Made by a program: the position numbers and the translations under genes. Positions 82 through 62,514 of a DNA stretch of 64,000 bases are shown in pieces. This DNA comes from Deinococcota bacterium. Its GTDB lineage: Bacteria; Deinococcota; Deinococci; Deinococcales; Thermaceae. Every line of letters starts with the position of its first letter. The first letter of the stretch is position 1. The stretch lies in assembly GCA_041695225.1 (NCBI GenBank), contig JBGFRI010000003.1, positions 64,001-128,000 on the forward strand, written 5' to 3'. The notes beneath the pieces are model-generated. The model searched no databases and had not been told where the DNA came from. It saw only the letters and a list, made by a program, of their open reading frames with translations.

Positions 82-140
82 AGAAACTGCTTGTGCTTGT
101 CTTCGCTACCGCATGATAGACTATTTCATGATAGGAGGAG

Positions 141-1364: not shown

Positions 1365-1424
1365 GTAGCTACATCAGCTATGCGGTGCCATACCCAAAGG
1401 TATGGCGCCGCTCTGCTTAATCAC

Positions 1425-1454
1425 AAAAAAGAGACCCCAAAAGGTCTCTTTTTG
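1425..1454. terminator. Bidirectional intrinsic terminator
   Basis: AAAAAAGAGACC-CCAAAA-GGTCTCTTTTT between convergent genes. Confidence 0.7.
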
Positions 1455-1466
1455 CTCCTGCTGCGC

Positions 1467-1877: not shown

Positions 1878-1946
1878 GCTCACCTCCGATAGGGGTCTCC
1901 TATCGGCATATATTATACATCTGGCTTCCTGGTATGATCCGTTCTT

Positions 1947-1979
1947 TCTTACACCCAAACCCTAACCATGGGTGTAAGA
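1947..1979. promoter_or_regulatory. 33-bp palindromic site TCTTACACCCA-N11-TGGGTGTAAGA, copy 1
   Basis: Perfect 11-bp arms; identical arms at 57340 and 61443; lies between divergent promoters. Confidence 0.75.
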
Positions 1980-2028
1980 CGCTGCCATCTCCCACTCTGA
2001 TATATAATGCTCCCCGATAGGAGGAGTA

Positions 2029-19624: not shown

Positions 19625-20020
19625 TCAGGACTTTTTGCACCACATTCCGCACCGGCCCTCGCCTTCAAAGCGGATCAGGGTGACATAGCCCTGGCGCTTA
19701 CCTTCGACGCCTTCTTCTTCAAACTGCCAGGCGCCACGGGAATACTTGGTGACCTCGGGCAGGCCATTACGGGCGCTCAAGAAGCGTTTCCGCCAGTGGT
19801 AGCCAAAGGCGGTAACTGTCCCGTTGGTATCCTGTGTGGCTCCCAGAAACGCCCAGTCAAAGCAGTCGTGGCAGGCTTTAGGTAGTACAAAACCACCAGG
19901 GGGCGGGCCAGCCGAACGGAAGCCTTTCTTCCCCCAGATCCGGAGGGTCTCGAGCCAGTTGTCTTCAGTAGTCTCGACCTCAATGATATGTCCTAGCGGG
20001 CTAAACAGCTCGATGCGCAC
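19625..20020 (-). CDS. ddrB: DdrB-like ssDNA binding/annealing protein
   Basis: Colinear with Deinococcus DdrB motifs: P.GG(F/Y)..P, FDW...GA, LP...KYSRGA, YVTL..F.G. Confidence 0.8.
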   Translation of the reverse strand: MRIELFSPLGHIIEVETTEDNWLETLRIWGKKGFRSAGPPPGGFVLPKACHDCFDWAFLGATQDTNGTVTAFGYHWRKRFLSARNGLPEVTKYSRGAWQFEEEGVEGKRQGYVTLIRFEGEGRCGMWCKKS

Positions 20021-22648: not shown

Positions 22649-22787
22649 TCTGTAATATACCCAACCCACACTGGATGTCAAGTGGAGCTACAGGGTGTCT
22701 GTCATGATGTCGGACTGGACCCATAACAGCTTCAGTCTAGGCAGTGGTCGTATTAGCGATATAATGCACTGTGATAGGAGGTAATAT

Positions 22788-24020
22788 ATGCTGGAAATCA
22801 GAAAAGGCATAATGTACTGGAAAGAAGACTCGCTCGGTCCAATATGGGCTGAAAAACCGACCCAGGCAGTTCAGGCAACTGAAGAGGAGCTGGCCACCCT
22901 GGCCACAAGCCACGGTGAGGAAGGCCCCATCCCCCGCCATCTCCTGCACCAGTGCTTCTTCTGGGTCAGGGGGGAGAGCGTGCCAGAGGACTATATCCCC
23001 TTCAGCAGCACCCTGGGGGTGGGAGTCCCGGGCGTCTACTTCCTGGGCCGCAAGATACAGCCCAGGGATCTGGAAAGTGCTGATGTGCTGAGACTGGCTC
23101 AGTACAAGCTGCACCCCAATCAGCACCAGGGTCTAGCCGCCTGGCGGAGGTTTCCTTGGCTGGGACTACACGACAGAGTCGACTTTCGGGCGGTGGAGGG
23201 AGGCATCTATAAGTGCGATGGCCTCCTGTTGGACTCGAGTGGCGATGTAATCTACCAGTCTGGTGTAGCCCAGCCTAGCGCAGCCTTGCTAGACTGGTTG
23301 GCCCAACAACCGCTATGGGCAGTTAAGGAGTTAAAGACCCGGGCAATCACTGGGTGGAAGATTCACCCGGAGGTACATCCAGGGTGGAAAGAACTTGCCA
23401 CCTGGGAACGAAACCAGGGTAGAGAAGCCTGGGGCCTGTACCAGCATGAGTCCTCGCTTTACCTGGCAGGACCGGGAGTGCTGGTAGAACACAAAACCAG
23501 CAAGCGCAGCCTCCAGCGTATGCTGGAGGCTGGCTACCTGCGCCCTAACGATCCTACCCGCCTGCTCTGGTTGGAGGCCGTTACGGGTAAGCGGCTGGCA
23601 GACGCCCAGCACGGACACACGCAACCAACGGAGGTTTTGTTGCTGGGGGAAAATCTCCTCCTGACGCATTACCATTTTTGGCGTGCGTGTCGTCCCAAGC
23701 AAAAACGCTGGGTCGTAAATTACTCCGGCAACGAGCAGCTGACCCCAGAAGAAATAGACCTGATTGGTCAGCATAATCTGGAGGCGCTTAAAGACTGGGC
23801 GGGGGGTTCCTACGCTTTCCAGGCCTACCTCGGTCTGGTGCGGGGCCAGCCACTGGCTATCTGGAAGCACCGGAACGGGGATCCAGGCTGCAGTACGGTA
23901 CTGACAGCGCTCGACAAAAAGCCAGGCCATGGGCGAGTGTTGCTGCAAGGCTCGCTGAAGGAGGTTGTCGCAGCCGACCACGAAAGCCTCCTGGCCATGG
24001 AGATGCTGACCAGGATCTAG
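22788..24020 (+). CDS. ~400-aa paralog family, copy 3
   Basis: LHQCFFW, GWKIHP, GYLRPNDPT..WLEAVTG, LLAMEMLTRI. Confidence 0.85.
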   Translation: MLEIRKGIMYWKEDSLGPIWAEKPTQAVQATEEELATLATSHGEEGPIPRHLLHQCFFWVRGESVPEDYIPFSSTLGVGVPGVYFLGRKIQPRDLESADVLRLAQYKLHPNQHQGLAAWRRFPWLGLHDRVDFRAVEGGIYKCDGLLLDSSGDVIYQSGVAQPSAALLDWLAQQPLWAVKELKTRAITGWKIHPEVHPGWKELATWERNQGREAWGLYQHESSLYLAGPGVLVEHKTSKRSLQRMLEAGYLRPNDPTRLLWLEAVTGKRLADAQHGHTQPTEVLLLGENLLLTHYHFWRACRPKQKRWVVNYSGNEQLTPEEIDLIGQHNLEALKDWAGGSYAFQAYLGLVRGQPLAIWKHRNGDPGCSTVLTALDKKPGHGRVLLQGSLKEVVAADHESLLAMEMLTRI

Positions 24021-33427: not shown

Positions 33428-34729
33428 CTACAGGTTGACTAGCTGGTGCGTAACAACCAGCTGGGTCAAACCTTCCCGGGCAACCCGCTGCTGCAGTTCT
33501 TCACGACTACCTCGGGCGATGATTTGTTTCCTCTCTGGCAGATCGGCTGATCCTATGGCCCATCGACCACCCGCAGCACCACCCAGCATGTAGTGCGCCC
33601 CATCCACACAACCCAGATACTCCATAGGAGTATAAATCCGGTTGGGTGCTGGCAACGCCGCAAGGCTTAAGACCCCAGCCTCAATGACGGGCATGACCTC
33701 TCTGGGCAATGGCTGACGTACTTGCCAGTGCTTGTTTGCCCGATCATGGAAAAGCCAGGTAACCCCACCTTGCCGAGTCTTCAACAGGAGCCAGCACCCA
33801 TGCTGATGGACCTGGGCCCATTTAGTGCGCAAGACCCCTTTGGGAAGTCTGGCTCCAGAAGTTGCCACAACCCAGAATGCACAGCTTGGGTCGTCGGGGC
33901 GCAAATGGCCTGCCTTGAGCAAAACCCCCAGCCGCTTCTTGTGGAAAGGCCAGATCTTTTCGATCAGGCCTGGCCCGACAAGCCAGAGCGCCTTGTCCGG
34001 ATCCTCCGTTATGGCCCAGGTCTGGTCCTCGCGCTGCCAGGTTCGTTCGATCCGGTGGTTGTCGGGCAGCTGCGGATAGGCGTACAGCAGCCGTAGCCGG
34101 TTGACATTGACGAAGCGCTCCAGATCCTGGCAGAGTTCCTCCAGCGTTTCCGCTGCTTGCTGGTGGAGCCAGGCTCTAAACCCCTCCAGAAGTTGTAGCG
34201 ACCGGTCTTCCCCACCGTATATGGAGATATTCAACAAACCCTTCCCCTGGCGATCATGCAGATGGCCATTAATCAGGAGGTAGTTTTTCCTTACGACCAG
34301 ATTGCAGATACCCAGGTAGCTTTCCCCGGAGGTCTGAACCAGCAGTTCCAGGCCTGGCCGGTGGTTCGGCGACAGGGCCGGCTGGGGCCGGGCCAGCTCA
34401 GCTGCTACCTGGGTCGGAGTGGCCAGCCGGCCCAGATAATAGACCAGCCGGGAGTCCTCCAGCCCCAGCCGTGCGCTGATCGGGACGTACCGGTCTGGCA
34501 GCGCAACTCCCCTGGCCCGGAAGTAAAGCAGGTGGGCTGCCCGAAAAAGGGGACATTCCTCGGCATTAAGACCATAAGTGCCGGTCTTCGGCTCCAGCCA
34601 GGCGGCCAGCTCCTCCACTTCAGGGTTGCTTAGCAAGGGGTACTCCTCGGGTTCCAGCCAGAGAGAAAAAGATGGCAGGTCCTTGTAGGACATCTGCGGG
34701 CCGTTGTCGGTGTAACACACTTTTAGCAT
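33428..34729 (-). CDS. ~400-aa paralog family, copy 4
   Basis: Y...GP N-terminus, HLLYF, YYLG, AGHLRPDDPS..WVVATSG, GLTQLVVTHQL. Confidence 0.85.
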   Translation of the reverse strand: MLKVCYTDNGPQMSYKDLPSFSLWLEPEEYPLLSNPEVEELAAWLEPKTGTYGLNAEECPLFRAAHLLYFRARGVALPDRYVPISARLGLEDSRLVYYLGRLATPTQVAAELARPQPALSPNHRPGLELLVQTSGESYLGICNLVVRKNYLLINGHLHDRQGKGLLNISIYGGEDRSLQLLEGFRAWLHQQAAETLEELCQDLERFVNVNRLRLLYAYPQLPDNHRIERTWQREDQTWAITEDPDKALWLVGPGLIEKIWPFHKKRLGVLLKAGHLRPDDPSCAFWVVATSGARLPKGVLRTKWAQVHQHGCWLLLKTRQGGVTWLFHDRANKHWQVRQPLPREVMPVIEAGVLSLAALPAPNRIYTPMEYLGCVDGAHYMLGGAAGGRWAIGSADLPERKQIIARGSREELQQRVAREGLTQLVVTHQLVNL

Positions 34730-36637: not shown

Positions 36638-37792
36638 ATGATCGAGATTCAATACACCGCCATCGGCCCCCGGATCTCCTTCCGGGGTCAGGATCTGGGC
36701 TACCTGTGGGATGAAAAGCCCGCAGTATGGCCTAAGCTCTCAAGGCAGGATCTGATTGACCTGGCCCAGGGCCAGGACTGGCTTCCAGCAAGGAAGCTCC
36801 ACCAGGTGTTCTTCTGGGCCAACCAGAAGGAGATGCCAGAAGATTACCGGCCTTTAGGAGCAGTCCTGGGCTCACTAAGTAATCTTGAATCGGCCCAGCT
36901 CTGCTTCCTGGGCTATCCCACCACCCCAGAGGAAATCAAGGCTAACTGGAAGGCGGCAAGCCGGGGAATGTTGCGAGGATTCTATCTGCGCCTCAAGGCA
37001 TGGCTGGCAAATCCAGTCTCGGACTTTGACATCCGGGGGGCCCTGGCGGAATCTGATCGACCCCATCCTCAAGTACGGGGCAAGGATCTGTCCCAGGGCC
37101 GGGCAGTATGGCTAGATCCTGGTTCCAGCGACCAGGACCAGGACTGGTTGACCGTTGAGCCTGCCTGGCTGCGAGGCGACAAGCTCTGGGGGTTTGCACA
37201 TTCCCCCAGAACGCGGCGGATCTGGCTAGTAGGGCCGGAACTGGCCGCACTGGTCTCACCTGCTAATAAAGAGGTTCTTCAAGACCTTTTCCGGCAGGGG
37301 CATCTTCGCCTGGACGATCCCACGGTCTATCTCTGGCTCCAGGCCACCTCCGGCGAGGCAGTACCGGGGGTTGGGCCAACTCACTATGTTCGGGGGTGTC
37401 AGATTGGCAAGCGGTATGTCCTGAGAACCAGTTACGGGCACTGGGATGCTTGGCAGCCCGGTGGGGAGATCACCAAACTTTCCCAACTGGATGTTGAGGA
37501 GACCACCCGGCTCTTCGAGCAGGTGGGACCGCAGGCGGTGGCTCAACTGGTGTTTGAGCTAACTCGCAATAGCCACTCTGAGACTAGTTCTGCTTACTTC
37601 CTGGGCCTGGGCCGGCATAAAAAGCAGGCCTGGTTTGCCGGAAATCTCGCTGGGATTGGGTGGAGGTTGACCAGCCCTCAGCTGGGTGGGCAGACCGTCC
37701 TGGAGACCTGCTCGCTGGAAGAGCTACTCAGGGAGGTAGAACGGGTCGGGCTAGACGGGCTGCTGGCCATACACCGGCTGGCCAGGCTCTAG
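36638..37792 (+). CDS. ~400-aa paralog family, copy 5
   Basis: LHQVFFW, GHLRLDDPT..WLQATSG, GLDGLLAIHRL; first 67 aa identical to copy 7. Confidence 0.85.
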   Translation: MIEIQYTAIGPRISFRGQDLGYLWDEKPAVWPKLSRQDLIDLAQGQDWLPARKLHQVFFWANQKEMPEDYRPLGAVLGSLSNLESAQLCFLGYPTTPEEIKANWKAASRGMLRGFYLRLKAWLANPVSDFDIRGALAESDRPHPQVRGKDLSQGRAVWLDPGSSDQDQDWLTVEPAWLRGDKLWGFAHSPRTRRIWLVGPELAALVSPANKEVLQDLFRQGHLRLDDPTVYLWLQATSGEAVPGVGPTHYVRGCQIGKRYVLRTSYGHWDAWQPGGEITKLSQLDVEETTRLFEQVGPQAVAQLVFELTRNSHSETSSAYFLGLGRHKKQAWFAGNLAGIGWRLTSPQLGGQTVLETCSLEELLREVERVGLDGLLAIHRLARL

Positions 37793-40864: not shown

Positions 40865-42100
40865 CTAGAAGTGAACCAGCAGATGCTGTGCCGTCAGCAC
40901 AGCCAGACCATTCCGCTCCAGTTGGCCAAGTACCTCCTCAAGAGATCCGCTGGTACAAACCCGCCGATCCTTTGGCAGATTGGGAGCGCTGATTCTGTAG
41001 CACACTCGATCTGCACGGGAGAAGTCTGCTTCCAGGAACCAGAACCGACCTGCCACTACTCCCAGATACTTGGAGGAGACCTGGGCGCTACGGGAGTTAC
41101 TGGTTGGAGCCAGACCCTCTTCCAGCAGCACTCGAACATCGGGGTGTTTGAGCACATCCAGGCCGACGGTTGTCCAGTTGCCTCCGGCGCGGGCATAGAG
41201 GTCGATGATCCGGTAGTTCTCCTGGTAGCAGGCCAGAAGGTTCCCCTCGAGCCGGGCCCGTGCATACACCCCTCGGTATGTGTGGCGCAGCCTGGTTCCG
41301 ATGGTGGCCTCCACCCAGTGGACGCAGGTGGGATCATCCGGTGACAGGTAGCCAGCTTCCAGATGCTGCTTCAGGGCCCTGCGACTCATTGGAAGTCGCT
41401 GTTTGATCCCAGGTCCCAGCAACCAGGTGTTCTTGGAGTCCTTGAAGTACCCCCAGAACTGACCGGTACGCTCCCACAACGAGACCACCTTGCTCATAGC
41501 AGGGGCCTCTGGGTTTATTTTCCAGCCAATCATGGCTGGACACGTGCTCTGGCGAATGTCGGCCATAGAGACCGAGGGTAGCCAGTCCCTCAGAGCCCAC
41601 CGGGGCGCACTATCGCCCTTCTGGTACAGGAGCGTCCCATTGCTCGCCCAGGCAGTGTCTCCCAGCTCTTCCCACCAAGCAGTGTTTGCCTGCTCCTGCC
41701 AGCGGTGGGGTCTCTGGGATCGGACTGGCTCGTGTCTGGCTCGCCACTTCTCGACAAAGTGATTGCCGAACTCGTCCAGGCCCACACAGGCCAGCTCCCA
41801 AGAGAGCTGTTCCGGCACGATTACTGGCCTCCCCAGATAGTAGAGAACATCTCCCACCTTCCCGAGTGCAAGCCCAAGCCACTCGTAAATGGCTGGTGCG
41901 ACCTTACCGTCCGCCCAGAAATAAAACCGGTGCAGGGTGGGCCAGTGGCTGGGCTGTAGCCTAAAGTCTGCGGCAATCCCAGCCAGCTGGCTGGGATCAA
42001 GCCGTGGCCAGACCCTGGGCTCGGAAGCCAAGGTGCTGCCGATGGTCTGGCCGTTGAGAACCCAGTTGGGCCCTTGGTCTGTGTACTCTATGATCAACAT
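40865..42100 (-). CDS. ~400-aa paralog family, copy 6
   Basis: LHRFYFW, GWKINPEAP, AGYLSPDDPT..WVEATIG, GLAVLTAQHLL. Confidence 0.85.
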   Translation of the reverse strand: MLIIEYTDQGPNWVLNGQTIGSTLASEPRVWPRLDPSQLAGIAADFRLQPSHWPTLHRFYFWADGKVAPAIYEWLGLALGKVGDVLYYLGRPVIVPEQLSWELACVGLDEFGNHFVEKWRARHEPVRSQRPHRWQEQANTAWWEELGDTAWASNGTLLYQKGDSAPRWALRDWLPSVSMADIRQSTCPAMIGWKINPEAPAMSKVVSLWERTGQFWGYFKDSKNTWLLGPGIKQRLPMSRRALKQHLEAGYLSPDDPTCVHWVEATIGTRLRHTYRGVYARARLEGNLLACYQENYRIIDLYARAGGNWTTVGLDVLKHPDVRVLLEEGLAPTSNSRSAQVSSKYLGVVAGRFWFLEADFSRADRVCYRISAPNLPKDRRVCTSGSLEEVLGQLERNGLAVLTAQHLLVHF

Positions 42101-42261
42101 ATGTCCTCCTATCAATATCTAGTATATAGCACTTGTTTGCTTGCACCTGGGCAAAAAGTTCTAGTTGAGATTAGCTAGCTACCTTAAAGCGCATATTCCG
42201 GTTGAGGTGCTATAAAAAGAAAGAAGAAATCTGCTATATTGTTTTCCGATAGGAGGACAAA

Positions 42262-43443
42262 ATGATCGAGATTCAATACACCGCCATCGGCCCCCGGATC
42301 TCCTTCCGGGGTCAGGATCTGGGCTACCTGTGGGATGAAAAGCCCGCAGTATGGCCTAAGCTCTCAAGGCAGGATCTGATTGACCTGGCCCAGGGCCAGG
42401 ACTGGCTTCCAGCAAGGAAGCTCCACCAGGTGTTCTTCTGGGCCAACCAGAAGGAGATGCCTAAAAATTACGACCTTCTGGGAACAGCCCTGGGAGCAGT
42501 GGGTAGGAAACCTTATCTACTTGGCCGTCCCACCAGCCCAGAAGAGGTCAAGGCCAACTGGGATCTGGCCACGGATAAGGTAGACCTGGGGCGCCGCTGG
42601 GGCTTGGAGGTGTGGAACATCTGTCCTGAGCCAGGACTGAGATGGCTGGAAAGTCCTCTATTCCGGCCTTACCGTCATATACACGGTCTGGTGATTGATG
42701 CTGCTGGCAAGATTCTCTACGCCCCTGGCGACAGTAGCCCCCGTGACCCAGACTGGCTGGCGGCCACTCCTTATCAGGATCTGGAGGCTCTGAAAGCGGA
42801 CGCCCTCCTAGCCTGGAAGATTAATCCTGCGGCCCCAACTGGCAAAGTAAAAAGGAGCTGGTTGCGCGGAAAAGAGCGGTGGGGATTTGTCCAGTCAGAC
42901 AAAAAGACCTGGCTGGTAGGACCTGACCTGGTAGAACAGGTCAACCCAGCCCGAGAAACCGTTCTCAGGAGGCTTCTCCAAAAGGAAATTCTCCGCCTGG
43001 AGGATCCTACTGCCTACCTCTGGTTTCAGGCTATGACCGGGAGCAAGATTCACAAAGCTTCTGTCTGGGACTATGGCCGTGGTTACCAGGTAGGAGAAAT
43101 CACTGTGCTGGGAAAACCCTTCTGGCACAACTGGGGGTGTTTTAGCTCCTGTGGGAGATCTGCTGAGGTAGAAAAGCTTCACCCTGAGCAGATCAAGGCC
43201 CTGTTCGAGCAAGTCGGACCAGAGAGCATTAATCGCAGGAACATCTCTACTGGCTACTTCCTGAGCTCGGAAGCAGGGGTATCCTGGTTTGTCCGCCGGG
43301 ACTCGCCCCATGGCTGGCAGCTAAACACGCCCACAGCCACAACGCCCGTCCTGAAAGGCGACACCCTGGAAGACCTCCTGGCCCTGGTGGAGCGTCATGG
43401 ACTAAGCCAGTTGCTAGCCATGTACCAGCTGACCAGAGTCTAG
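42262..43443 (+). CDS. ~400-aa paralog family, copy 7
   Basis: LHQVFFW, AWKINP, LRLEDPT..WFQAMTG, GLSQLLAMYQL. Confidence 0.85.
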   Translation: MIEIQYTAIGPRISFRGQDLGYLWDEKPAVWPKLSRQDLIDLAQGQDWLPARKLHQVFFWANQKEMPKNYDLLGTALGAVGRKPYLLGRPTSPEEVKANWDLATDKVDLGRRWGLEVWNICPEPGLRWLESPLFRPYRHIHGLVIDAAGKILYAPGDSSPRDPDWLAATPYQDLEALKADALLAWKINPAAPTGKVKRSWLRGKERWGFVQSDKKTWLVGPDLVEQVNPARETVLRRLLQKEILRLEDPTAYLWFQAMTGSKIHKASVWDYGRGYQVGEITVLGKPFWHNWGCFSSCGRSAEVEKLHPEQIKALFEQVGPESINRRNISTGYFLSSEAGVSWFVRRDSPHGWQLNTPTATTPVLKGDTLEDLLALVERHGLSQLLAMYQLTRV

Positions 43444-45171: not shown

Positions 45172-45756
45172 CTAGAAGAGGTAGCCGTGGTCGGCCACCT
45201 TCCGCACCTGGTATTGCTGGTCGAAGCACATCCGCTCCGCCAACTCCTGGGCGGAGAGCTTCTTGCCCCGGTCCTCGGGGCGCTGGTTGAGGACCGGGGC
45301 AAGGACACCCCGGGCGTAGATGGCCAGCTCGAGGGGGATCGAGCCGGCCACCACTTTCCCCTCGATGTCCTCGGGCTTCAGGGCCCCGGACTTGACCGGC
45401 ACAGCCGGAAAGTGCTTCCCGACCGCCTCGGCCATCTCCGGGGCGAACCCGAAGGCCAGATCCGGGGCCTCCACGGGCCCGGCCTCGACCTGGTAGGTGG
45501 CACAACCGGTCACCCGGGTACGCAGCACCTCCACGGGGAGGTCGGCCTTCACCTCATCCTGGGTCAGCTTCAGCCCCAGGACGGTGACAGCGCCTGCCAG
45601 AGCAGCCAGGTCAAGGGGCAGCACGCCGAAAACGTGCTTGCCCCGGACCTGATCGGCCGTGGCGTGCTCGAGGACGGGGGTCTTGGTTCTCACCAGCCCG
45701 GACTCAATCAGAAGAGCCCGGGTGCCTTTGTGGCGCGTAACGACAAGTCTTTCCAT
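45172..45756 (-). CDS. Tandem two-domain Csx16-like protein (ring nuclease candidate)
   Basis: VVTRH, G.HV.G.LPL.LAA and YQV, then a second copy GKVVAGSIPLELA..RGKKLSA..YQV; resembles Csx16 (Cas_VVA1548). Confidence 0.7.
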   Translation of the reverse strand: MERLVVTRHKGTRALLIESGLVRTKTPVLEHATADQVRGKHVFGVLPLDLAALAGAVTVLGLKLTQDEVKADLPVEVLRTRVTGCATYQVEAGPVEAPDLAFGFAPEMAEAVGKHFPAVPVKSGALKPEDIEGKVVAGSIPLELAIYARGVLAPVLNQRPEDRGKKLSAQELAERMCFDQQYQVRKVADHGYLF

Positions 45757-45995
45757 ATATTCTCCTCCTATCACTATTCAGCATACAATACCGTCCGTGC
45801 AGGAAAACAAAAATAATGCGAATCCATCGTCACTGCGTCACCAGACCACTTGTTTCCGCTTTGGAGCGCTACTTATCAATGTGACGCATGGTGACGCAAC
45901 GCATGGACTGCCGGACTTTCACAGCGCACTCACCCAGGCTAAGCAAGAAAAGTGAGGTAGGATAGCCTATCTGTGAAATATGACCTTTCACAGAT

Positions 45996-47434: not shown

Positions 47435-47487
47435 GACACATCTCATCGGCCGGTACTCTGATATACTCTACTCCGATAGGAGGAGAT

Positions 47488-48744
47488 ATGATACAGATTC
47501 GGTACGGCCCCAGCGGGCCAGTTCTTCGGCTCAAAGACCAGGATCTCGGCCCGGTCTGGAAACCAGAGCGGAAAAAGGTTCCCCGCCTCAGCGAGAATGA
47601 GCTTTTCGAGCTAGCTAGTTGGGGTGAGCGGGCCTGGCCCTGGCGCAAGCTAGAGCTGCACCAGCTCTATTTTTTGGCCCGTGGTAGGGAATGCCCGGCC
47701 GAGTACGTGGATATTGGAGCTGCGTTGGGCCGTGATGGGAGCCAGCTCTACCTGCTGGGCCGGCCGATCAACGCTGCTGAGGCCCTGGACTGCTGGCCGG
47801 CAACCCAGCTGGGCATGGAGGAGCCGGGGGAAGTCTACAACCGCCTTCTCTACCAGAAGATGTACGGCTCTGACTGGGGAAAAAACTGGCGCATAGAGAA
47901 TCTGGGAGATCTGGTGATCTCCACCGGCCCGCACAATGCCCGGCTGAACACCCCTCGGGGTGATCTGCTGTTCAGCGGGTATGAGGACACACTGCCCAGG
48001 CCAGCATTGCAAAAGTGGTTGAAGACCACCGATTGGGGGCGGCTACAGATGCTTTCTAAGTACCTGTTTAGCCGCTTGCTGGCCTGGAAGCTCCAGCCGA
48101 GCTTCCGAGTTACGGATACCACCGAAAGCATTAACTTCTGGTGGGAAGGCCAGGAGCCCCGGGTCCTGGTAACCAGGTCGGAAGGAGACTGCTGGTTACT
48201 CACTCCTGCCCGGGCAGACCGGCTCAGCTGGAAGAACCTGCCCCGCCTTCTGGCCGACGGACTGCTGGCGCCCCACAATCCCACTGCCCCTTTCTGGGTG
48301 CAGGCGGTAAGTGGGCTGGAGCTCGAGCCTCTCTTCCTTGCCCGGGCCAGGCAGGCCTGGCTACTTCCAGAGGCCCTCTGCCTGCAACAGGACTCCAACT
48401 TCCATTTTATGGAACCTGGAATAGCGGGAACCTGGGTAGCCATGGAGGCTGGCCTCGAGCGGGGCTTCCTGCCCCGGTTTGTAGAGGAAGCGGGGATGAC
48501 TCCTACCAGCATGAGCCGCTGCTTCGACTTCAGCGAGGGGTACTACCTGGGGCAGGTACATGACGCGGAAATACATCTAAACTATGACCGCACCACCGGG
48601 GAAGAAGAGACGGAGCTTTGGATCTACCAGCAGGGTGCGTGGAAAAGGCCCCCGCTAAGAGGCAAGGCACAGGAGATCCTGGCCAGGCTGGAGCAGGAGG
48701 GCCTGGAAAAGATGCTGGCTATATATCAGCTGGTCAGCATTTAG
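47488..48744 (+). CDS. ~400-aa paralog family, copy 8
   Basis: LHQLYF, LYLLG, AWKLQP, GLLAPHNPT..WVQAVSG, GLEKMLAIYQL. Confidence 0.85.
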   Translation: MIQIRYGPSGPVLRLKDQDLGPVWKPERKKVPRLSENELFELASWGERAWPWRKLELHQLYFLARGRECPAEYVDIGAALGRDGSQLYLLGRPINAAEALDCWPATQLGMEEPGEVYNRLLYQKMYGSDWGKNWRIENLGDLVISTGPHNARLNTPRGDLLFSGYEDTLPRPALQKWLKTTDWGRLQMLSKYLFSRLLAWKLQPSFRVTDTTESINFWWEGQEPRVLVTRSEGDCWLLTPARADRLSWKNLPRLLADGLLAPHNPTAPFWVQAVSGLELEPLFLARARQAWLLPEALCLQQDSNFHFMEPGIAGTWVAMEAGLERGFLPRFVEEAGMTPTSMSRCFDFSEGYYLGQVHDAEIHLNYDRTTGEEETELWIYQQGAWKRPPLRGKAQEILARLEQEGLEKMLAIYQLVSI

Positions 48745-50909: not shown

Positions 50910-53900
50910 TCAGGATAAAGGCGGCAGTCCCTTTACAATCGCCTCAGTTCGCAAACTTACGGTCACTAAGCGCCGGATAAGATCCACAATGTAGCGAGGG
51001 TTGCCTGCCTCACGGCACCACTCGTTGGGGTCACTCACAATTCCGCTGTCTTTGTCTTCTGAGATCGAGTACCGCTCCATTGCCCATTCGATGGCGCTCT
51101 TACCATTCACAACGTACTGGTATGCCGCAAGCGGAATGTCGCGTAGCGTGAGATTCTGGTTGTAGACGATAACGGTCTTGTCCACTTTACCGTCTGCACC
51201 TTTCCCAAAGGCGATCTTTCTGACACGGTAGAACTGCCAGGGCTCAAGCTCAAGGATCCTTGCCTCCTCAGTAAGTGGATAAGGCTCTACCGTTTCGTAA
51301 TTGAGGTGCAGGTGTCCTAAATCCTTTCCAGCCCGACTGAAAGCCCAGAAGTCCGTAGCGAAAGGTACACGGGGCAGCATCTTCTTGAGGTTTGCTGCAA
51401 AGCGACTGCGGTAGTCCGGCGAGTGCAGGATGCCATATACATACCAGAAGATGTCCTCTTTGGTAATGGTGCCATCGGCATAATGCTTGCGGAACTCCTC
51501 GAGCGCCCAGTCAGTTATAGCCTCACGCCGAATATAGCCGTTAGTATCCGGCGGGGCGCTGTCAGCAAGTATTTCTTGTTGGGGAGATGAGGTGTTGTCA
51601 ATTTTGTCATACCAGTAAAGGGGAAAGCACTGGCCAGTATCGTGAAGGTGGAGATTAGGTACACAATCGCTCACCAGCGCTGAAAACGGCCTCGCTGCTC
51701 CGACGCCGGTGACAGAAATTACGATGTTGTGATGCCTGGGCGTTGGGAAGAGCTTGGGTTGTTTTAGAATCCTCTCAATGAAACTTCTGTTGAAGTACAA
51801 CCATTGCTTGACAAAAGGCCGGTACATCCCAGTTACAATGGAAGTCTCTTCAAACTTATACTTTTTACTGCGCTTAAGGTCTTCCTTAAGGTTAACCGTC
51901 CAGCTAATGCGTTTTGGGTCTGAATCTATTACTTCCTCAACACTTGGCCACTGCTCCCTGGGTTTAGACTCGCAGGCCCTGGCGTAGCGCTCCTGTTCTT
52001 CGTTGTAGACGCCGATCATGCGACGCATATTAGCTTCCAGCGCCTGACGACCCATGTTGTAAGCCCAGGCGTCTCGACCCGTTGATACACCAAGCGAGTA
52101 AACCCCGAAGATCGTCTTTGCTTCCTCATCTTCCTTATTGCCCAGGGGAATAAAGGTTTCAAACTCAGGATCGCGCTGGTTGATCCAGTCTGCTTCTGCA
52201 TTTGGTTGCAGGCGCTGCCAGGGGATAGCATCAATACTGGCAAACCGTCCGATCAGGGTAAGCTTCTCTTCCTGCGTCAGGTAGTCACCGATGTCATGGT
52301 AGTAAAGCTCCCCAGGGCCCTGGTGCCTGGGATCCTTGACCATGATTGTGATGACTACGGGTGTGCGGGAGCCTGAGCCAAATATTTTACTGCCCTCTCG
52401 CTTTGATTCCTCGCCAGATGTGCGTTGATTACCCCTCAGATTGAACACATAAAGCTGGCTGTGCTCTTCCACCAGACACTTACGCAGCCCGTCCATGTTT
52501 CTGGCGTCCAGAAAGGATCCATTGGTGACAAATGCCACGACGCCGCGTTCGCCTATGCGATCCGATGCCCAGCGGATGGCGCGGATGTAGGAATCGTATA
52601 GATTCTTGAGCAGTTTTGCGTTTGATTGCGCTGCATAGGTCTCGCGGATGCGAGTGTCCAGCTCGGGATAGGAGAGATTCCGGTTATTGTCGTTCTGACT
52701 TTCCTGTTGCGCCGAATAAGGCGGATTCCCCACGATCACCCGGATGGGCTGCGCCAGCTGTCGCTCAACTCGAGCGTTGTTCTCTGGAAGAATGATACGG
52801 TCAATGAGATCGCCTTTCTCGGTCATCTGGAAGGTATCGGTGAGCACCATCCCTTCAAACGGGAGGTACTCACCGGTTGCTCCGTGGTAGGCCGTCTCGA
52901 TGTTGACTGTGGCGATATAGTAGGCCAGGAGCACAATCTCGTTGGCATGTATCTCCGTCAGGTATTTCTCAGGGAGCTTATCCCTGGGAATGAGCCCCAG
53001 CTGTAGGAGCCGCACAAAGAATGTGCCGGTGCCTGCAAATGGATCAAGGATCTGTACGCCGGGCGAACCGAGACTTTCGCCAAAGTGCTTTCTGAGGGCT
53101 GCGTCAGCGCTTTTCAGGATATAGTCAACTACCTCGATGGGAGTGTAAACGATTCCCAACCGCTCTGACATCTTTGGGAATGCGGTATTGAAAAAGGTGT
53201 CGTAGAGATTGCGGATGATCTCCTGCTTTGACTTATCGCTCCTGGCCAGGCTGATCCGCTCGCGCACGTTCTGATAGAACTTCTCCAGGCCCTCAGTCTC
53301 AGACGCCACGGCAGCGGCATCGAGCTTTTCCACCATACGCTGCAACGCCTTGCCGACGGCGTTGTTTTCCGGGAAGTTGGTCTCAGCAAACAGGGCCTGG
53401 AAGACTGGCAGCGTCAGGATATGCTGCACCAGCATCTCAATGGCCTCTTCCCGCGTAACAGCCGGGTTGAGGGTCTCCTGAAGGCCCTTGAGGAACCTGG
53501 CAAGCTCTTCTGCCACCACTGGACTGGCCTGGATGAGCGTCGTGATCCGTGCAGTGAGAGTGTTAGCCACCCTGGCGATGTCTTTAGCCCAGTCTGCCCA
53601 GTATTCGCGGTCTCCCAGCTTCTTGGGAATTGCGGCATAGACCGCTTCGTTAATGGCTTCAATCGGCAAAAACGGAATTTCAAGCGGCAGCTCGCCTTGT
53701 TCTGACGTTTCCCAGCCTTCTTTTTTTCTACCGGGATCAGAGATAACCGTTATCCTCCGTCGAAACTCCGCCTCGTCCACCAGGCGTTCGTCGTGTGCCC
53801 GAAGCGCTTTGATAACCTGCCAGATGCCTTTGAACTGCGGGTCATTCTCAATATAGTCGTTATAGTTCGTGACCTTTTCTGACGGGATACATACCGGTAG

Positions 53901-55718
53901 CACGATATACCCGTACTGCTTCCCAGGTGCCATACGCATTACACGCCCCACCGACTGAACAATGTCAACAATGGAGTCGCGGGTATCGAAAAACACCACC
54001 GCATCAAGCGCGGGAACATCAATGCCCTCAGAAAGGCAGCGGGCATTGGAAAGAATCCGGCACTCTCCATCCTCCGGTCCCCCTTTGAGCCAGCCGAGCG
54101 CTTCCTGGCGCTGGAGGGCATTCATGGTTCCGTCAACGTGCTGTAGACGCACACTGACCATATCCGATTGATCTGCACTGTCCAGATGTCCTTCCTGGTA
54201 GCGTTCCACCAGGCTGGTGAAGATCTCTGTAACCAGCTGAGAATCCTTGATGGAGCGTGAGAATGCTATCGCACGGCGCATGGGCTGGAGGTCGTCTTTC
54301 GCCTCCTCCTCCCCATCCTCACCAATCAGCACCAGGCCACGTTTGGAGAGTCCTTTCCAACTACCGATGATTTTGGTGGCGAACGCAACATTAATTGCCT
54401 TCTTGTTGTTTACTTTGAATGCCTTGTTGAAATTATTTGCCAGGGCCGCCATCTCTGCCTCTCGCACTGCGACGATGAGTACCTTGTACTCAGCAAGAAG
54501 ACCGAGCGATGCGGCCTTGTCAAAACCAAGCCGGTAGAATTCGCTGCCGTAAGTCTCCTCATCGTCCATTGAGTACAGCACTGCTTCGTGGCGGCTGGCC
54601 TTGGTCTTGGAGGCTTCCCCGAAGATCCGGGGGGTGGCAGTCATATAAACTCGTTTTCTGCCCCGCACAATGATGTTATCGTGTACCTTAACGAATTCCG
54701 AGGGATCCTCTCCAGGTAGGGTAAGTCCAGTAGTGCGGTGTCCTTCGTCGCAGATGATGAGATCAAACTCTGGTAGACCCATGTTCTGGGCATCGGCTAT
54801 GACTTGAATGGACTGATAGGTGGAAAACACCACCGTGCGGCGGTCTGGGGATACCATCGCCATGTGGCTAGCAAGTCTGTCTGGATCAGTCGTTGCCGGG
54901 TAAGCAAGGTCTCGAGTACTGATGTCTTCCTCATCGCGCCCAACTTTGCTATCCGAACAGACGGCAAAAGCATGAACCGGCTCTTCGGCTTCACCAGTCC
55001 ACTCCCGTAAGGTTTGCGCTACCAGGGAGATCGAGGGAGCGAGGAAGAGAATCCGTCCACCCTGGGGAACTATACGCTCGGCAAGACGCAAAGAGGTAAG
55101 CGTTTTGCCGGTTCCACAGGCCATGATAAGCTTTCCGCGCTCCGCGTTGCCAAGTCCAGTGAGAACTGCTTTAACCGCTTCTTCCTGGTGGGGGCGTAAA
55201 ACTTTCCTTTTCCTCAGTTGGAGGGTCTCGAGGTTTTCGAGACTGAACACACCCCAGTCAATTGGGCTCTCGGCAAGATCCTTAACCCAAAGCCGCATAA
55301 CTGGAATCGTCTGGTCTACAAGTGCTTCCTCTGCGTGCTTACTCCACCTATCGGTCGTGGAGACGATAAGGCGATAACTGAACCCGCGCTCGCCTTCCTC
55401 GGTTTGGAAGTGTTTGCCCGATGTAGTAAAAAACGAGTCAATATCTGCCTTTTGAACGGTATGGGTAGAGTCGAAAAACTTGCACTGTACTGCCCAGTAA
55501 TCGCCGGTAGCACGTTCGCGGGCAATAAGGTCAATACCTGTATCGTGTGGCGTCCAGCGCCCCGGCCACTCGGGCCACAGCCAAACGTTCGAGAGACGAG
55601 TAGCGTACTGGGGATCTGTGAGTAGAAACTTCTGGATCAATCGCTCAAAGAGCGTACCCTTGTCGCGGTTAGTACGAGCGTAGGAGGAGAACTGAGTCAG
55701 GAGATCTTCAAAAGTCAC
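50910..55718 (-). CDS. Type ISP restriction-modification enzyme (Mrr-like nuclease + SF2 helicase + N6 methyltransferase + TRD)
   Basis: GIDL..VQCK, MACGTGKT, CDEGH, EGIDVP, ILDPFAGTG, GNPPY; 1602 aa. Confidence 0.93.
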   Translation of the reverse strand: MTFEDLLTQFSSYARTNRDKGTLFERLIQKFLLTDPQYATRLSNVWLWPEWPGRWTPHDTGIDLIARERATGDYWAVQCKFFDSTHTVQKADIDSFFTTSGKHFQTEEGERGFSYRLIVSTTDRWSKHAEEALVDQTIPVMRLWVKDLAESPIDWGVFSLENLETLQLRKRKVLRPHQEEAVKAVLTGLGNAERGKLIMACGTGKTLTSLRLAERIVPQGGRILFLAPSISLVAQTLREWTGEAEEPVHAFAVCSDSKVGRDEEDISTRDLAYPATTDPDRLASHMAMVSPDRRTVVFSTYQSIQVIADAQNMGLPEFDLIICDEGHRTTGLTLPGEDPSEFVKVHDNIIVRGRKRVYMTATPRIFGEASKTKASRHEAVLYSMDDEETYGSEFYRLGFDKAASLGLLAEYKVLIVAVREAEMAALANNFNKAFKVNNKKAINVAFATKIIGSWKGLSKRGLVLIGEDGEEEAKDDLQPMRRAIAFSRSIKDSQLVTEIFTSLVERYQEGHLDSADQSDMVSVRLQHVDGTMNALQRQEALGWLKGGPEDGECRILSNARCLSEGIDVPALDAVVFFDTRDSIVDIVQSVGRVMRMAPGKQYGYIVLPVCIPSEKVTNYNDYIENDPQFKGIWQVIKALRAHDERLVDEAEFRRRITVISDPGRKKEGWETSEQGELPLEIPFLPIEAINEAVYAAIPKKLGDREYWADWAKDIARVANTLTARITTLIQASPVVAEELARFLKGLQETLNPAVTREEAIEMLVQHILTLPVFQALFAETNFPENNAVGKALQRMVEKLDAAAVASETEGLEKFYQNVRERISLARSDKSKQEIIRNLYDTFFNTAFPKMSERLGIVYTPIEVVDYILKSADAALRKHFGESLGSPGVQILDPFAGTGTFFVRLLQLGLIPRDKLPEKYLTEIHANEIVLLAYYIATVNIETAYHGATGEYLPFEGMVLTDTFQMTEKGDLIDRIILPENNARVERQLAQPIRVIVGNPPYSAQQESQNDNNRNLSYPELDTRIRETYAAQSNAKLLKNLYDSYIRAIRWASDRIGERGVVAFVTNGSFLDARNMDGLRKCLVEEHSQLYVFNLRGNQRTSGEESKREGSKIFGSGSRTPVVITIMVKDPRHQGPGELYYHDIGDYLTQEEKLTLIGRFASIDAIPWQRLQPNAEADWINQRDPEFETFIPLGNKEDEEAKTIFGVYSLGVSTGRDAWAYNMGRQALEANMRRMIGVYNEEQERYARACESKPREQWPSVEEVIDSDPKRISWTVNLKEDLKRSKKYKFEETSIVTGMYRPFVKQWLYFNRSFIERILKQPKLFPTPRHHNIVISVTGVGAARPFSALVSDCVPNLHLHDTGQCFPLYWYDKIDNTSSPQQEILADSAPPDTNGYIRREAITDWALEEFRKHYADGTITKEDIFWYVYGILHSPDYRSRFAANLKKMLPRVPFATDFWAFSRAGKDLGHLHLNYETVEPYPLTEEARILELEPWQFYRVRKIAFGKGADGKVDKTVIVYNQNLTLRDIPLAAYQYVVNGKSAIEWAMERYSISEDKDSGIVSDPNEWCREAGNPRYIVDLIRRLVTVSLRTEAIVKGLPPLS

Positions 55719-58746: not shown

Positions 58747-60992
58747 GCCGACTGGGCCTCCCCTTCGTCAGCCCCGGTACGGTAGCTTACATAAGCCTCA
58801 GCCTCCCACAGGCTCAGCTCGGGCTTTCCCCAAGGGCATTTGCCGGGAACGATATAGTATAAACCACGCTTGGAGCGGATGTAGCCATACTGCAAAAACA
58901 GCTTCTTGGTTTCTTCCTCTGGCGGCGCGAGTTGAAGGGCCTGGTTAACAATAAAGCGGGTTACCCGGCCAGGCCGTCCTTCAGCCTGCACCATCACTCG
59001 CTCGGCTACCAGGCGTTGCATCCAGCTGGCAAACTGCTCACGTACTGCATCCTGGTCGACCAGCTGGCCTGCTGCAATTACCGGTTTCACGGGTGCAGCT
59101 TCCAGCTCTGGTACAACGGGCGTTTCCTTAGCGTCAGACAGTACCTTCTGCGCCGCAGCCAACCAGTCATTATGTATGGCCTGCTGGAGATGCTGATTTT
59201 TCCAGGCCAGCATACTTTCCCGGATCCAGGCGATGGGGTTACCCTCCTTTGCGGAAAACTCAATAGGGTAGCTCCGCAGTCGGATGGGGGGAAACCCGCG
59301 CAACACTGCGATCAGCTCCCCCAGCTCCATCCGCTGAAGCTCATCGATATTGATCAGGGCGGTGGTCTTCTCGCTTACGTTCAGGCTGCGGTTAACTTTC
59401 TTCATGAGGTCGTCGGGAACCTGAATCTCCCCCACGCTGTACTGTTCAATAGAGACCTCACCCAGGGTCTCTGACCAGAATTTGGCGTCATTCTGGGTAA
59501 AGGAGCCGGGCAGAATAATGGTGGTGCCGATGTTGTTATCCACCGTGGCCGCCCAGCCCATCTCCCCATAGATATTCATAGCCTGGCTACGGTTTTGCAG
59601 TGCCATGTGCAGGCTGATATTCCTCGAGCGCAGAGTAGCCAGGTCATCATTGAGGTTAGGCAGGAATCCAAACAGGGCAAACTCGTCGTAGTAGTAGTTG
59701 ATATGCACCGGCAGCCGGTCGCCGAGCCGCTCTGCCAGTGAGAGCATCCGTCCGTCCAGGTAGCGCTTGAAGAAACGCAGGATGGCCCGGCCCGACGAAC
59801 CACGGACATAAGACTCGGGCAGAACCAGATGAATCAGACCAGGGGTGATCAGAACCCGGTCCAGGTCTACCTCCCGGTCCCCGGGAGAAAAGGTCTCCAC
59901 CGCCGAGTCCATGCGGAAGATGGTCAGGTCTTCTACCAGACGGTTGATGGCGCCTGAGAAGATCTTCTTGTCGGTCTCCAGGGTGCTCCGGATCTCGTCG
60001 GCAGCCTGGCGACGGCCGGTAAACCAGTGGCGCACAGAGTCCATGCCCAGGTTGGCCACATTATAGACCTCACGAAAGTTGCGCATATCGCGGGGTCCCA
60101 GCGAAAGACCGTGAATGATTCCGGCCAGTAACAGACGGGCATTGGAGATGTACACCTTGGCCCCTGAATCCTCCGCAGCCTCAAGGTCGGGAGGATAGAT
60201 CAGGCGGGCGATGTCCAGAGCCTGGTCATACCCCCGCACCTCGGCCAGCACCGGAATCTGAATGCCGATCCCAGCCTCAAAAGGGCTGATGATAAGCATC
60301 TGGCGGCCAAAGGCGCGAAAGTAATCGCGCATGTCCAGATAGGAGTCATTGGGATTGGGGTACTTGGTGTCCAGCACCACCGCGATATTTCCTTCGGCGG
60401 CATCCAGCGCAATACGGGGCCGGAAGGAACCTACCGTCTTACCCCCACCAGTACCGGCATAGGTCAGGGAGTGAATGTCGTTGATGCGCTTAGTAGGGCG
60501 CAGGAAGTAGCGTCTTTTGGGGTTGGCGGGGTCAGTCCAGACCCCCAGGTAGCCGCTCAGGGTATGGCCGTCGGGGTTTCTGATGGCCGCGTTGATAATC
60601 TCTTTAGGGCTGCGTTTTTCTACTAAGGGACGAATATCGGCCTCACCAGCCCAGCGCTGGGACAGAGTGCGCCTGGGAGTATAGCGCTGAGGGCGTATGA
60701 CTACCCCCAGACCCAGGGCCAGCACCAGCACAAATACCGTGATGGTAGTGTTATCCAGGGTGTCCTGACCCAGAATCTGCGAACACTGGGTATGATTCAG
60801 ACAGCGCCAGTAAAACTGTCCTTTATCGGTAGCCTCCAGATACCGGCCCCAGCCGGCTTGCTCGAGCCTGATCCGCTGCCCCTCCATCTGGCGGTAGGTA
60901 TGGTAGGCCAGGCCGGCCATGGTCAGAATGACCCAGGCAATACCCAGGGCCAGCCGGGTCGGGTGAAGGCGCCGGAAAACTACTGTGCTCAC
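58743..60992 (-). CDS. VirD4/TraG-like type IV coupling protein
   Basis: Two N-terminal TMs, AGTGGGKT, LDTK, DEFA, LRSR...LQN.SQ...YG. Confidence 0.85.
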   Translation of the reverse strand: MSTVVFRRLHPTRLALGIAWVILTMAGLAYHTYRQMEGQRIRLEQAGWGRYLEATDKGQFYWRCLNHTQCSQILGQDTLDNTTITVFVLVLALGLGVVIRPQRYTPRRTLSQRWAGEADIRPLVEKRSPKEIINAAIRNPDGHTLSGYLGVWTDPANPKRRYFLRPTKRINDIHSLTYAGTGGGKTVGSFRPRIALDAAEGNIAVVLDTKYPNPNDSYLDMRDYFRAFGRQMLIISPFEAGIGIQIPVLAEVRGYDQALDIARLIYPPDLEAAEDSGAKVYISNARLLLAGIIHGLSLGPRDMRNFREVYNVANLGMDSVRHWFTGRRQAADEIRSTLETDKKIFSGAINRLVEDLTIFRMDSAVETFSPGDREVDLDRVLITPGLIHLVLPESYVRGSSGRAILRFFKRYLDGRMLSLAERLGDRLPVHINYYYDEFALFGFLPNLNDDLATLRSRNISLHMALQNRSQAMNIYGEMGWAATVDNNIGTTIILPGSFTQNDAKFWSETLGEVSIEQYSVGEIQVPDDLMKKVNRSLNVSEKTTALINIDELQRMELGELIAVLRGFPPIRLRSYPIEFSAKEGNPIAWIRESMLAWKNQHLQQAIHNDWLAAAQKVLSDAKETPVVPELEAAPVKPVIAAGQLVDQDAVREQFASWMQRLVAERVMVQAEGRPGRVTRFIVNQALQLAPPEEETKKLFLQYGYIRSKRGLYYIVPGKCPWGKPELSLWEAEAYVSYRTGADEGEAQSA

Positions 60993-61656: not shown

Positions 61657-62514
61657 CTAGAACCGCAGCTCGTTGAGCCTCCAAAAGGCCGGGGTGTCCC
61701 TCAGTTCTGGGTTTTGCTGGATAAGAGTCCAGGGCGTCTCACCCATAGCGGTACGAGCTCTGGGGTCGGCCCCCAACTCCAGCAGCTTCAGAACCACATC
61801 AGAGCTTCTTCCGAAGCGTGTTGCCAGGTGAAACGGCGTCCGACCATCCCGATCCCGTGTATTCACCTCTATACCCAGCCTGACCAGGGTCTCGATGACG
61901 GCAGGATTGGTGTTCCTGCTTGCAGCAAAGTGAAGCGGCGTCCAACCAAACGGATCCCGCGCACTCACCTCTGCACCCAGCCTGACCAGGGTCTCGATGG
62001 CGGCAGGATTGGTATTGCTGCTTGCAGCACGGTGAAGTGGTGTCTGACCAAACAGACGATCCCGCACATTCACCTCTGCACCCAGCCTGACCAGGGTCTC
62101 GATGATGGCGGGGTTGGCGTTGCGATGTGCAGCAAAGTAAAGCGGCGTCCAATCAGTCTGATCCCGCACATTCACCTCTGCACCCAGCCTGACCAGGGTC
62201 TCGATGATGGCGGGGTTGGTATTAGTGAGAGCGGCATAGTGAAGCGGTGTCCCACCACCCTGATCCCGGGCATTCACCTGGGCACCCAGTCGCACCAGGG
62301 TCTCGATGACGGCAGGGTTGGTATTAATGAGAGCAGCATAGTGAAGCGGTGTCCCACCACGCTGACTCCGCGCATTCACCTGGGCTCCGGTCTGAACGGC
62401 CTGCTCCAGACTGGCTGGAGTTGCGGTTCGCCAGAACTCGGGGGTCAGCAAAGGGTTAGCCAGGGCAGTGCCAGAGAAGAGAATGGTCAGTACGATAGGT
62501 AAAAGTGTCCTCAT
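61657..62514 (-). CDS. Secreted ankyrin-repeat protein
   Basis: Signal peptide; six TPLH.AA..N.NPA.IETLVRLGA-type repeats. Confidence 0.92.
   Translation of the reverse strand: MRTLLPIVLTILFSGTALANPLLTPEFWRTATPASLEQAVQTGAQVNARSQRGGTPLHYAALINTNPAVIETLVRLGAQVNARDQGGGTPLHYAALTNTNPAIIETLVRLGAEVNVRDQTDWTPLYFAAHRNANPAIIETLVRLGAEVNVRDRLFGQTPLHRAASSNTNPAAIETLVRLGAEVSARDPFGWTPLHFAASRNTNPAVIETLVRLGIEVNTRDRDGRTPFHLATRFGRSSDVVLKLLELGADPRARTAMGETPWTLIQQNPELRDTPAFWRLNELRF

Follow-up and report, generated by a model that had tools for sequence, protein, structure and literature searches.

A single-chain tandem Csx16 protein on a plasmid-like Thermaceae replicon: complementary decay of its two halves and a candidate role against type III CRISPR

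Why would a plasmid-like replicon carry, with no cas gene beside it, a protein that resembles two CRISPR ring nucleases joined in one chain? The question is raised by a stretch of 64,000 nucleotides (the window) from a member of the Thermaceae (Deinococcota bacterium, GenBank assembly GCA_041695225.1, contig JBGFRI010000003.1, positions 64,001 to 128,000), in which the minus strand of 45172..45756 encodes a protein of 194 amino acids (aa), with an ATG start and its stop codon at 45172-45174. A sequence-only reading had taken this protein for a fused pseudo-dimer of Csx16-like domains, co-opted by the plasmid to destroy or sequester cyclic tetra-adenylate (cA4). The link of Csx16 to cyclic oligoadenylate (cOA) turnover, on which that reading leaned, is sound: Csx16 has been confirmed by experiment as a cA4-specific ring nuclease, active without metal, in EDTA, and yielding small linear products (Hoikkala et al. 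2025, PMC12409355). Since Csx16 is already a proven cA4 ring nuclease, and mobile ring nucleases are known anti-CRISPRs, the protein would represent a known kind of counter-defence in a little-described one-chain form. The anti-CRISPR idea is by now conventional, and the main interest of the locus lies in the complementary decay of the two halves.

Profile searches placed the protein in the Csx16 family, with one exception. It matched Pfam PF09652 (Cas_VVA1548) in two stretches at 53.4 bits (cut-off 25, E 3e-14), whereas against NCBIfam TIGR02620, the Csx16 family of that library, it reached only 17.8 bits, below the cut-off of 46.35, and only over residues 5-52; the expected match to Csx16 was thus borne out by one library and not by the other. 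The duplication was clear. Aligned by Smith-Waterman, residues 35-90 and 129-184 score 54; when the second half was shuffled the score fell to 24.5 ± 4.5, with 54 reached in 0 of 2000 trials. A Csx16 profile that we built from 25 single-domain relatives, and whose numbering follows the residues of half 1, matched half 1 (residues 1-92) at 107 bits and half 2 (residues 127-188, profile positions 33-94) at 44 bits, with a conditional E-value of 9e-16. These matches, the column table and the model described below delimit domain 1 (residues 1-93; 45478..45756) and domain 2 (residues 100-194; 45175..45459), the profile covering only positions 33-94 of the latter. Between them lies a six-residue linker (residues 94-99; 45460..45477), which in the secondary structure of the model joins the last strand of domain 1 (residues 82-93) to the first strand of domain 2 (residues 100-103). 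All three segments are on the minus strand.

AlphaFold2, given an alignment of 46 sequences, predicted the two halves as a confident, compact two-domain model (predicted local distance difference test, pLDDT, 95.8; predicted template-modelling score, pTM, 0.88), with an identical order of strands and helices in both; from the single sequence without an alignment the pLDDT was 32.3. As had been noticed from the sequence, the T-R-H motif (residues 7-9) is kept by half 1 alone, the matching strand-loop of half 2 being hydrophobic. Because both halves share the full succession of strands and helices, half 2 appears to be a complete domain with a replaced N-terminal motif rather than a truncated one. 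Searches of the PDB by sequence returned no match to the 194-aa protein at E up to 10, Foldseek gave none against the PDB and BFVD at E ≤ 0.001, and a wide VIA-align search found no chain at Z ≥ 5 among 48,161; with no significant match from the fold searches, we assign no fold past Rossmann/CARF-like. PHROGs held no match for the protein and little for its neighbours, and we found no structure or catalytic residues in the literature covered on Csx16. The gene product belongs to PF09652, the Csx16 family of Pfam, though in a single-chain form that is not canonical. The double domain of the proposed pseudo-dimer thus stands, with a confident model behind it; the architecture is not unique, as 25 tandem Csx16 proteins were found.

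Comparison of the two domains, column by column, with the family revealed what each has lost. Domain 1 keeps T7-R8-H9, H31 and G39-K40-H41, and V69-K70 replaces the R-G of the family. Domain 2 keeps G133-K134, G138, P141 and R163-G164, lacks both TRH and H31, and has V135 in place of H41. The polar set of the family is present once in the chain, split across the halves, with T7, R8, H9 and H31 in domain 1 and R163 in domain 2.

This division is foreign to single-domain relatives, in which T7, R8, H9, H31 and R69 are each kept in 130-134 of 139 proteins, and which in 127 of 139 cases keep both R69 and the N-site (scored as kept when at least three of T7, R8, H9 and H31 are present). To other tandem proteins it is common. 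A search of 1.84 billion representative proteins returned 605 relatives at E ≤ 0.001; two Csx16 domains were found in 20 of 157 (the top matches listed together with earlier matches), and four more proteins from a profile search and one from a genome of the same genus brought the tandem set to 25, of which 23 were scored and two with a partial domain were set aside. Nineteen of the 23 are strictly complementary, one domain having the N-site without R69 and the other R69 without the N-site, and they come in both orders (8 like the window protein, 11 the reverse). No tandem (0/23) has both residue sets in both halves. Among the other four, two combine an R-only first domain with a complete second domain, one has an N-terminus that cannot be scored in its record, and the last pairs an N-only first domain with a second domain carrying both sets (three of the four N-site residues). 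Columns that played no part in defining the groups follow the same division: among the 19, H41 is kept in 13 N-site domains versus 2 of the other domains, T58 in 18 versus 7, and E/D72 in 17 versus 7. In contrast, columns of the presumed ligand cradle persist in both halves (G39 17 versus 16, P47 18 versus 18). Most tandem domains have different single-domain proteins as their nearest neighbours, so several lineages are represented among the tandems. The literature covered on Csx16, ring nucleases and pseudo-dimeric or tandem CARF proteins gave no account of a tandem Csx16, nor of the complementary pattern of its residues.

Judged by these residue patterns, complementary decay implies that the active site of Csx16 would lie across the dimer interface, and that one of two such sites would have survived in the tandem form. 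It is hardly credible that the gene is instead a decaying relic without function. One half is indeed eroded, and the record of the closest relative (P0002, 83% identity) shows an aberrant N-terminus. However, the frame is intact, a consensus Shine-Dalgarno (SD) sequence lies 7 nt ahead of the ATG, both halves are modelled very confidently, and the same ordered loss recurs in many lineages.

Would a pocket made asymmetric in this way still be meant for cA4? Fusion could have shifted its specificity to a ligand that lacks two-fold symmetry, be it cA5, cA3, linear A4>P or some other nucleotide signal. There is precedent, in that CARF domains arranged in tandem on a single chain form asymmetric pockets, with cA5 preferred by Csm6-2 and cA3 or cA4 bound by SAVED domains (PMC13187428). 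SAVED proteins also appear among the top rows of our Foldseek search (9r8s, E 0.016, TMq 0.28; 8fmh, E 0.039, TMq 0.35), but as weak matches below any significance threshold. The cradle residues, moreover, are still pseudo-symmetric, the Csx16 that was assayed stays cA4-specific at a tenfold higher enzyme concentration (PMC12409355), and the assembly has no match to the CD-NTase family (nor to the Card1 family), so we regard a changed ligand as highly unlikely for the window protein. A broader version of the idea seems to us quite doubtful, though somewhat less so: that tandem Csx16 forms a distinct class of single-chain ring nucleases of mobile elements, whose obligate asymmetry, a single trans-built site within a pseudo-symmetric cradle, is an adaptation and not decay, tuned to a ligand such as cA5, cA3 or the still-active A4>P. 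If it were true, asymmetric tandems would catch signals that escape the stand-alone ring nucleases known to be specific for cA4.

We then considered the replicon on which the gene resides. The window is part of contig C8 (150,324 bp) of an assembly of 50 contigs that is 92% complete. By Pfam, C8 encodes a Rep3-type initiator, ParA, two ParB-like proteins, a type IV coupling protein (T4CP), a type ISP restriction enzyme, orphan methyltransferases, three tyrosine recombinases, ankyrin-repeat proteins and a DdrB-like protein. Both of its ends (1-220 and 149,900-150,324) lie inside the same 72-nt tandem coding repeat, suggesting a circular replicon that assembly broke in a repeat-rich coiled-coil gene. 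A k-mer screen had flagged these end repeats as possible CRISPR arrays, a candidate that we rejected, as they are 72-nt coding repeats. The T4CP of the window shares 73.6% identity, along 99% of its length, with the one on the Allomeiothermus silvanus plasmid pMESIL02, and all T4CP matches (16 records) are to plasmids of Thermus, Deinococcus and Allomeiothermus. The plasmid location assumed in the sequence-only reading is thus supported by Rep3, ParAB and T4CP genes in the window, by the shared repeat at the contig ends and by the exclusively plasmid matches of the T4CP; C8 is plasmid-like and apparently conjugative, as far as its gene content tells. No near-identical DNA was found in the plasmid collection.

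The tandem Csx16 gene is flanked on one side by an XRE-type regulator and a gene of no known family, and on the other by a second such gene and a XerC-like recombinase, and it is the sole gene on its own strand between its neighbours. Also in the window are a 1602-aa single-chain type ISP restriction-modification enzyme (50910-55718, minus strand) with Mrr-like nuclease, helicase, coupler, methylase and specificity domains, the DdrB-like gene (19625-20020, minus strand; the single-strand annealing/single-stranded DNA-binding family of Deinococcus) near ParB-like and helix-turn-helix genes, and ankyrin genes at 61657-62514 and from 63621 onwards.

Upstream of the tandem gene lies a cassette (45764..45790, minus strand) consisting of a -10-like box, TATGCT (45780-45785), then 7 nt, the motif GATAGGAGG (45764-45772), and a further 7 nt before the ATG. 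The motif had been noticed earlier, in a feature drawn as far as 45790; that span takes in the motif and the -10-like box, while the open reading frame (ORF) ends at 45756. GATAGGAGG occurs 14 times in the window versus 0.59 expected, a count reached by none of 100 shuffles, and 29 times on C8 versus 9 times in the remaining 2.68 Mb of the assembly. Its sites in the window include 130-138, 2016-2024, 22773-22781, 42248-42256, 45764-45772 and 47475-47483, and in aligned upstream regions it lies 5-9 nt ahead of start codons and about 7-9 nt past a TATAnT-like box. A scan with the sigma-70 consensus gave no site upstream of the tandem gene. From its position and distribution, the cassette looks like a plasmid-specific module of promoter, very short leader and SD sequence, in which the promoter role would be the conjectural part.

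The same cassette precedes eight paralogous genes with products of about 250-430 aa and 22-43% mutual identity, at 141-1364 (plus strand), 8716-9480 (minus), 22788-24020 (plus), 33428-34729 (minus), 36638-37792 (plus), 40865-42115 (minus), 42262-43443 (plus) and 47488-48744 (plus). The Csx16 gene region lies between two of them, and some adjoin tyrosine recombinase genes. None has a Pfam or PHROG match, and the neighbouring paralogue that was queried had no match in the ESM Atlas.

Is the location of the gene peculiar to this replicon? PF09652 matched in 7 of 364 Deinococcota genomes and was in tandem form in 4, all of them Thermaceae. In none of the three other tandem-bearing genomes do the Cas10 genes share a contig or replicon with the tandem gene; in G196, a complete genome, they are on the chromosome and a second megaplasmid, and the tandem Csx16 gene is on a third replicon. 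The tandem gene of genome G007 has a transposase, an AAA_15 ATPase, a UvrD helicase, a serine recombinase and an XRE regulator as neighbours. On pMESIL02 (NC_014214.1) we found a tandem protein of 261 aa annotated as "CRISPR-associated protein Csx16" (WP_013159883.1), encoded between the coupling-protein gene and hypothetical genes, amid conjugation genes and with no cas gene near. Together, the window plasmid and pMESIL02 suggest that conjugative plasmids of Thermaceae routinely carry tandem Csx16 away from cas loci. A second Csx16-domain gene is present on pMESIL02 (99-2114, minus strand); its 671-aa product has an N-terminal Csx16 domain followed by a long extension of no known family, and next to the gene are one encoding ankyrin repeats and a row of small hypothetical ones.

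Further collections were searched for relatives. Two scans of the genome contig collection gave no close ones, metagenome contigs gave none with two tandem queries and viral contigs none with three, and tblastn matched 0 of the 50,697 records of a phage collection. In IMG/VR, all 26 Csx16 loci that a narrow pattern found on putative viral contigs (26/26) carry the single-domain form, as compared with the two phage genomes with Csx16 reported in PMC12409355. Several of these open frames extend well past the domain, up to 295 aa.

The sequence-only reading had stated that there are no type III cas genes, which holds for the window (no other cas family was found among 57 ORFs scanned with Pfam, chosen from 101 ORFs of at least 120 aa) but not for the assembly. 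Contig C50 carries a type III-A operon comprising csm1/cas10, csm2-5, a PIN-domain gene, cas6, a gene for a 383-aa CARF protein and cas1. The GGDD motif of its Cas10, the only one in the assembly, is intact. In the CARF protein an R-x4-H HEPN motif lies at the C-terminus, and the CARF domain is weakly similar to that of the cA4-binding Csx1-Crn2 (E 1e-4). The PIN-domain gene (C50:2735-3205, minus strand) lies between csm5 and cas6 and encodes 156 aa.

Spacer matches were seen elsewhere in the assembly. Three of 22 spacers of the array at C37:61583-63278 (36-nt repeat) match contig C12 at 59747-59782, 82881-82917 and 87491-87526 (the three identities being 36/36, 35/36 and 34/37 bases), and one of these spacers also matches C38:6161-6190 (29/30). 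The C12 region encodes methyltransferases, an anti-restriction protein, ParB, a helicase, a sliding clamp, a DnaC loader, ribonucleotide reductase and a DNA polymerase, and looks like another large mobile element. The matches would reflect either self-targeting within the bin or an arms race within the population.

The reading that we favour, and to which we would give about an even chance of being correct, is that the tandem protein is a plasmid-borne counter-defence factor that degrades cA4 with a single active site built in trans. In this scheme, which is drawn from residue patterns and gene context, two Csx16 copies joined by the six-residue linker would replace the homodimer of a protein of about 95 aa with a single-chain pseudo-dimer. 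Each half-site of the family would span the interface, pairing the TRH/His cluster of one protomer with Arg69 of the other. Once the protomers were fused, selection would keep one half-site, leaving both contributions to the second free to decay; the window protein would retain exactly one (T7, R8, H9, H31 and H41 with R163), with the G-K...G..P residues of the ligand cradle persisting in both halves. The host lineage has type III systems that signal through cOA. Expressed there from the promoter/SD cassette specific to its conjugative plasmid, the protein would bind the cA4 made by the host and open the ring at one position to give linear A4>P; a second cut would be possible only after the product had rebound in an orientation rotated by 180 degrees. 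The lowered cA4 would blunt the response of the CARF-HEPN RNase, and the plasmid would benefit as from an anti-CRISPR. The ligand, catalysis, the benefit to the plasmid and the trans-built site are all matters that we infer.

Several points weigh against this scheme. A4>P still supports activation of HEPN RNases, and it is the second cut that inactivates (PMC8284326), so one site may not silence the signal unless its product is recut or held. The TIGR02620 score falls short of its cut-off, and the evidence for a site built in trans consists of residue patterns. Close kin among the 19 complementary tandems (P0086 with P0159-P0162; the G007 protein with P0030) mean that the count overstates the number of independent events. 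All 24 sequencing runs listed with this DNA are metagenomic, with no RNA run among them, so the assembly is probably a bin and residence of C8 and C50 in the same cell is presumed. None of 52 spacers from two CRISPR arrays matches C8 (30 intervals from the C10 array, the last two of which, of 340 and 931 nt, are stretches flanking the array, and 22 from the C37 array). The cassette, being common to 29 plasmid genes, says nothing specific about early expression of the tandem gene. Finally, outside the Thermaceae tandem Csx16 may also sit within type III loci.

The requirement that the product be recut or held is the main mechanistic uncertainty, and it keeps alive a rival according to which catalysis decayed after fusion and the asymmetric pocket serves as a cOA sponge or sensor, sequestering cA4 or A4>P without cutting either. 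Csx15, a small CARF-like protein, works well as a cA4 sponge but only very slowly as a nuclease (PMC13148439); each domain of the tandem lacks half of the conserved polar residues, and the cradle positions G39, K40, G44 and P47 are retained in both halves. As only one half-site keeps its polar residues, a sponge or a single-cut enzyme is as much in play as a two-cut ring nuclease. However, in 19 of 23 tandems, whichever way round the domains stand, the residues that survive make up exactly one full family complement, a pattern expected from selection for one working site, and a pure binder need not keep TRH, H31 and H41 together with the partner Arg. On this balance a catalytically dead sponge appears quite unlikely.

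A different challenge comes from the host side. The protein could be a regulatory ring nuclease that acts in trans as a cellular off-switch, resetting the type III-A system of the host, and could simply be housed on a resident megaplasmid, as much of the CRISPR machinery of Thermaceae is. Indeed, we recognised no ring nuclease within the type III-A locus of C50, where the PIN-domain gene occupies the place between csm5 and cas6, and PF09652 matches only once in the assembly; a survey counted 31 cases in which a ring nuclease sits in a locus without a known effector, and suggested action in trans (PMC12409355), and plasmids like pMESIL02 are stable residents of sequenced strains. However, no cas gene lies within 6 kb of the window gene, the distance that the survey in PMC12409355 used as its criterion for type III association, and the G196 tandem gene is on a replicon without either Cas10. 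The tandem form, found in just 4 of the 364 Deinococcota genomes, lies in mobile or plasmid contexts wherever these are visible, and the window gene carries the plasmid-specific expression cassette. We therefore regard a host off-switch as rather unlikely and prefer the plasmid counter-defence role.

What the natural fusions offer resembles mutagenesis done by evolution. The decay singles out T7, R8, H9, H31 and H41 of one protomer and, from the other, R69 as candidate members of one functional unit, predicts that a dimer needs only one site, and thereby predicts the catalytic unit of a family for which no solved structure was found. The plasmid-borne single-chain form also joins the catalogue of candidate type III anti-CRISPRs, in which AcrIII-1 and AcrIII-2 are established and phage and plasmid orthologues of Crn4 are proposed (PMC8284326, PMC12830947, PMC12751052).

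How does the protein compare with the systems that it resembles? It is like canonical Csx16 in the profile match of both halves, in possessing one full polar set and in its small Rossmann/CARF-like fold. Canonical Csx16, however, is a single domain of about 90-110 aa that was modelled with AF3 as a two-fold symmetric homodimer with its conserved residues on one face (PMC12409355), whereas the window protein has two domains in one chain of 194 aa. The canonical form is associated with type III loci (taken as within 6 kb in the survey of PMC12409355) and the window gene has none adjoining it; single-domain relatives mostly keep the residue sets together, and in the window protein each set occurs once, split between the halves. 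A parallel in context is the tandem Csx16 WP_013159883.1, whose plasmid is conjugative and related and whose gene, too, has no cas genes around it. The tandem P0030 (261 aa), which we equate with WP_013159883.1 by length and family only, has the same order, with the N-site in domain 1 and the Arg in domain 2. WP_013159883.1 differs in its C-terminal extension and in sequence (about 32% identity over residues 5-167), and its gene is directly beside the coupling-protein gene, whereas the window gene is about 13 kb from its T4CP.

Among established anti-CRISPRs, AcrIII-1 and the related Crn2 (DUF1874) are small, dimeric, metal-independent cA4 nucleases, used by viruses and plasmids against type III systems; unlike the window protein, they are homodimers with two equivalent sites. 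A Pfam scan at E up to 10 gave PF09652 only, with no match of the window protein to DUF1874 or SAVED. Domain 1 aligned with the DUF1874 protein 2j6c_A at Z 4.5 (rmsd 2.5 over 71 residues), within the range of unrelated Rossmann-like proteins, as is 8y7g_B (the Crn2 part) at Z 3.6; a similar value, Z 4.8, was reported for Csx16 against 2J6B, a viral Crn2 homologue (PMC12409355). AcrIII-2 (PDB 9r8s; PMC12751052), a SAVED protein, is a viral ring nuclease of mobile elements that has a composite active site, which forms between two molecules that sandwich cA4, and tandem Csx16 is about 60 residues shorter. SAVED domains are alike in principle, with two fused CARF-like domains in one chain forming a pseudo-symmetric pocket for a cyclic nucleotide. 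In Can1 of Thermus thermophilus and Csm6-2 of Actinomyces procaprae, too, a duplicated sensor domain in one polypeptide replaces the homodimer; these are effectors with nuclease output domains, whereas the window protein is the sensor/ring-nuclease module alone.

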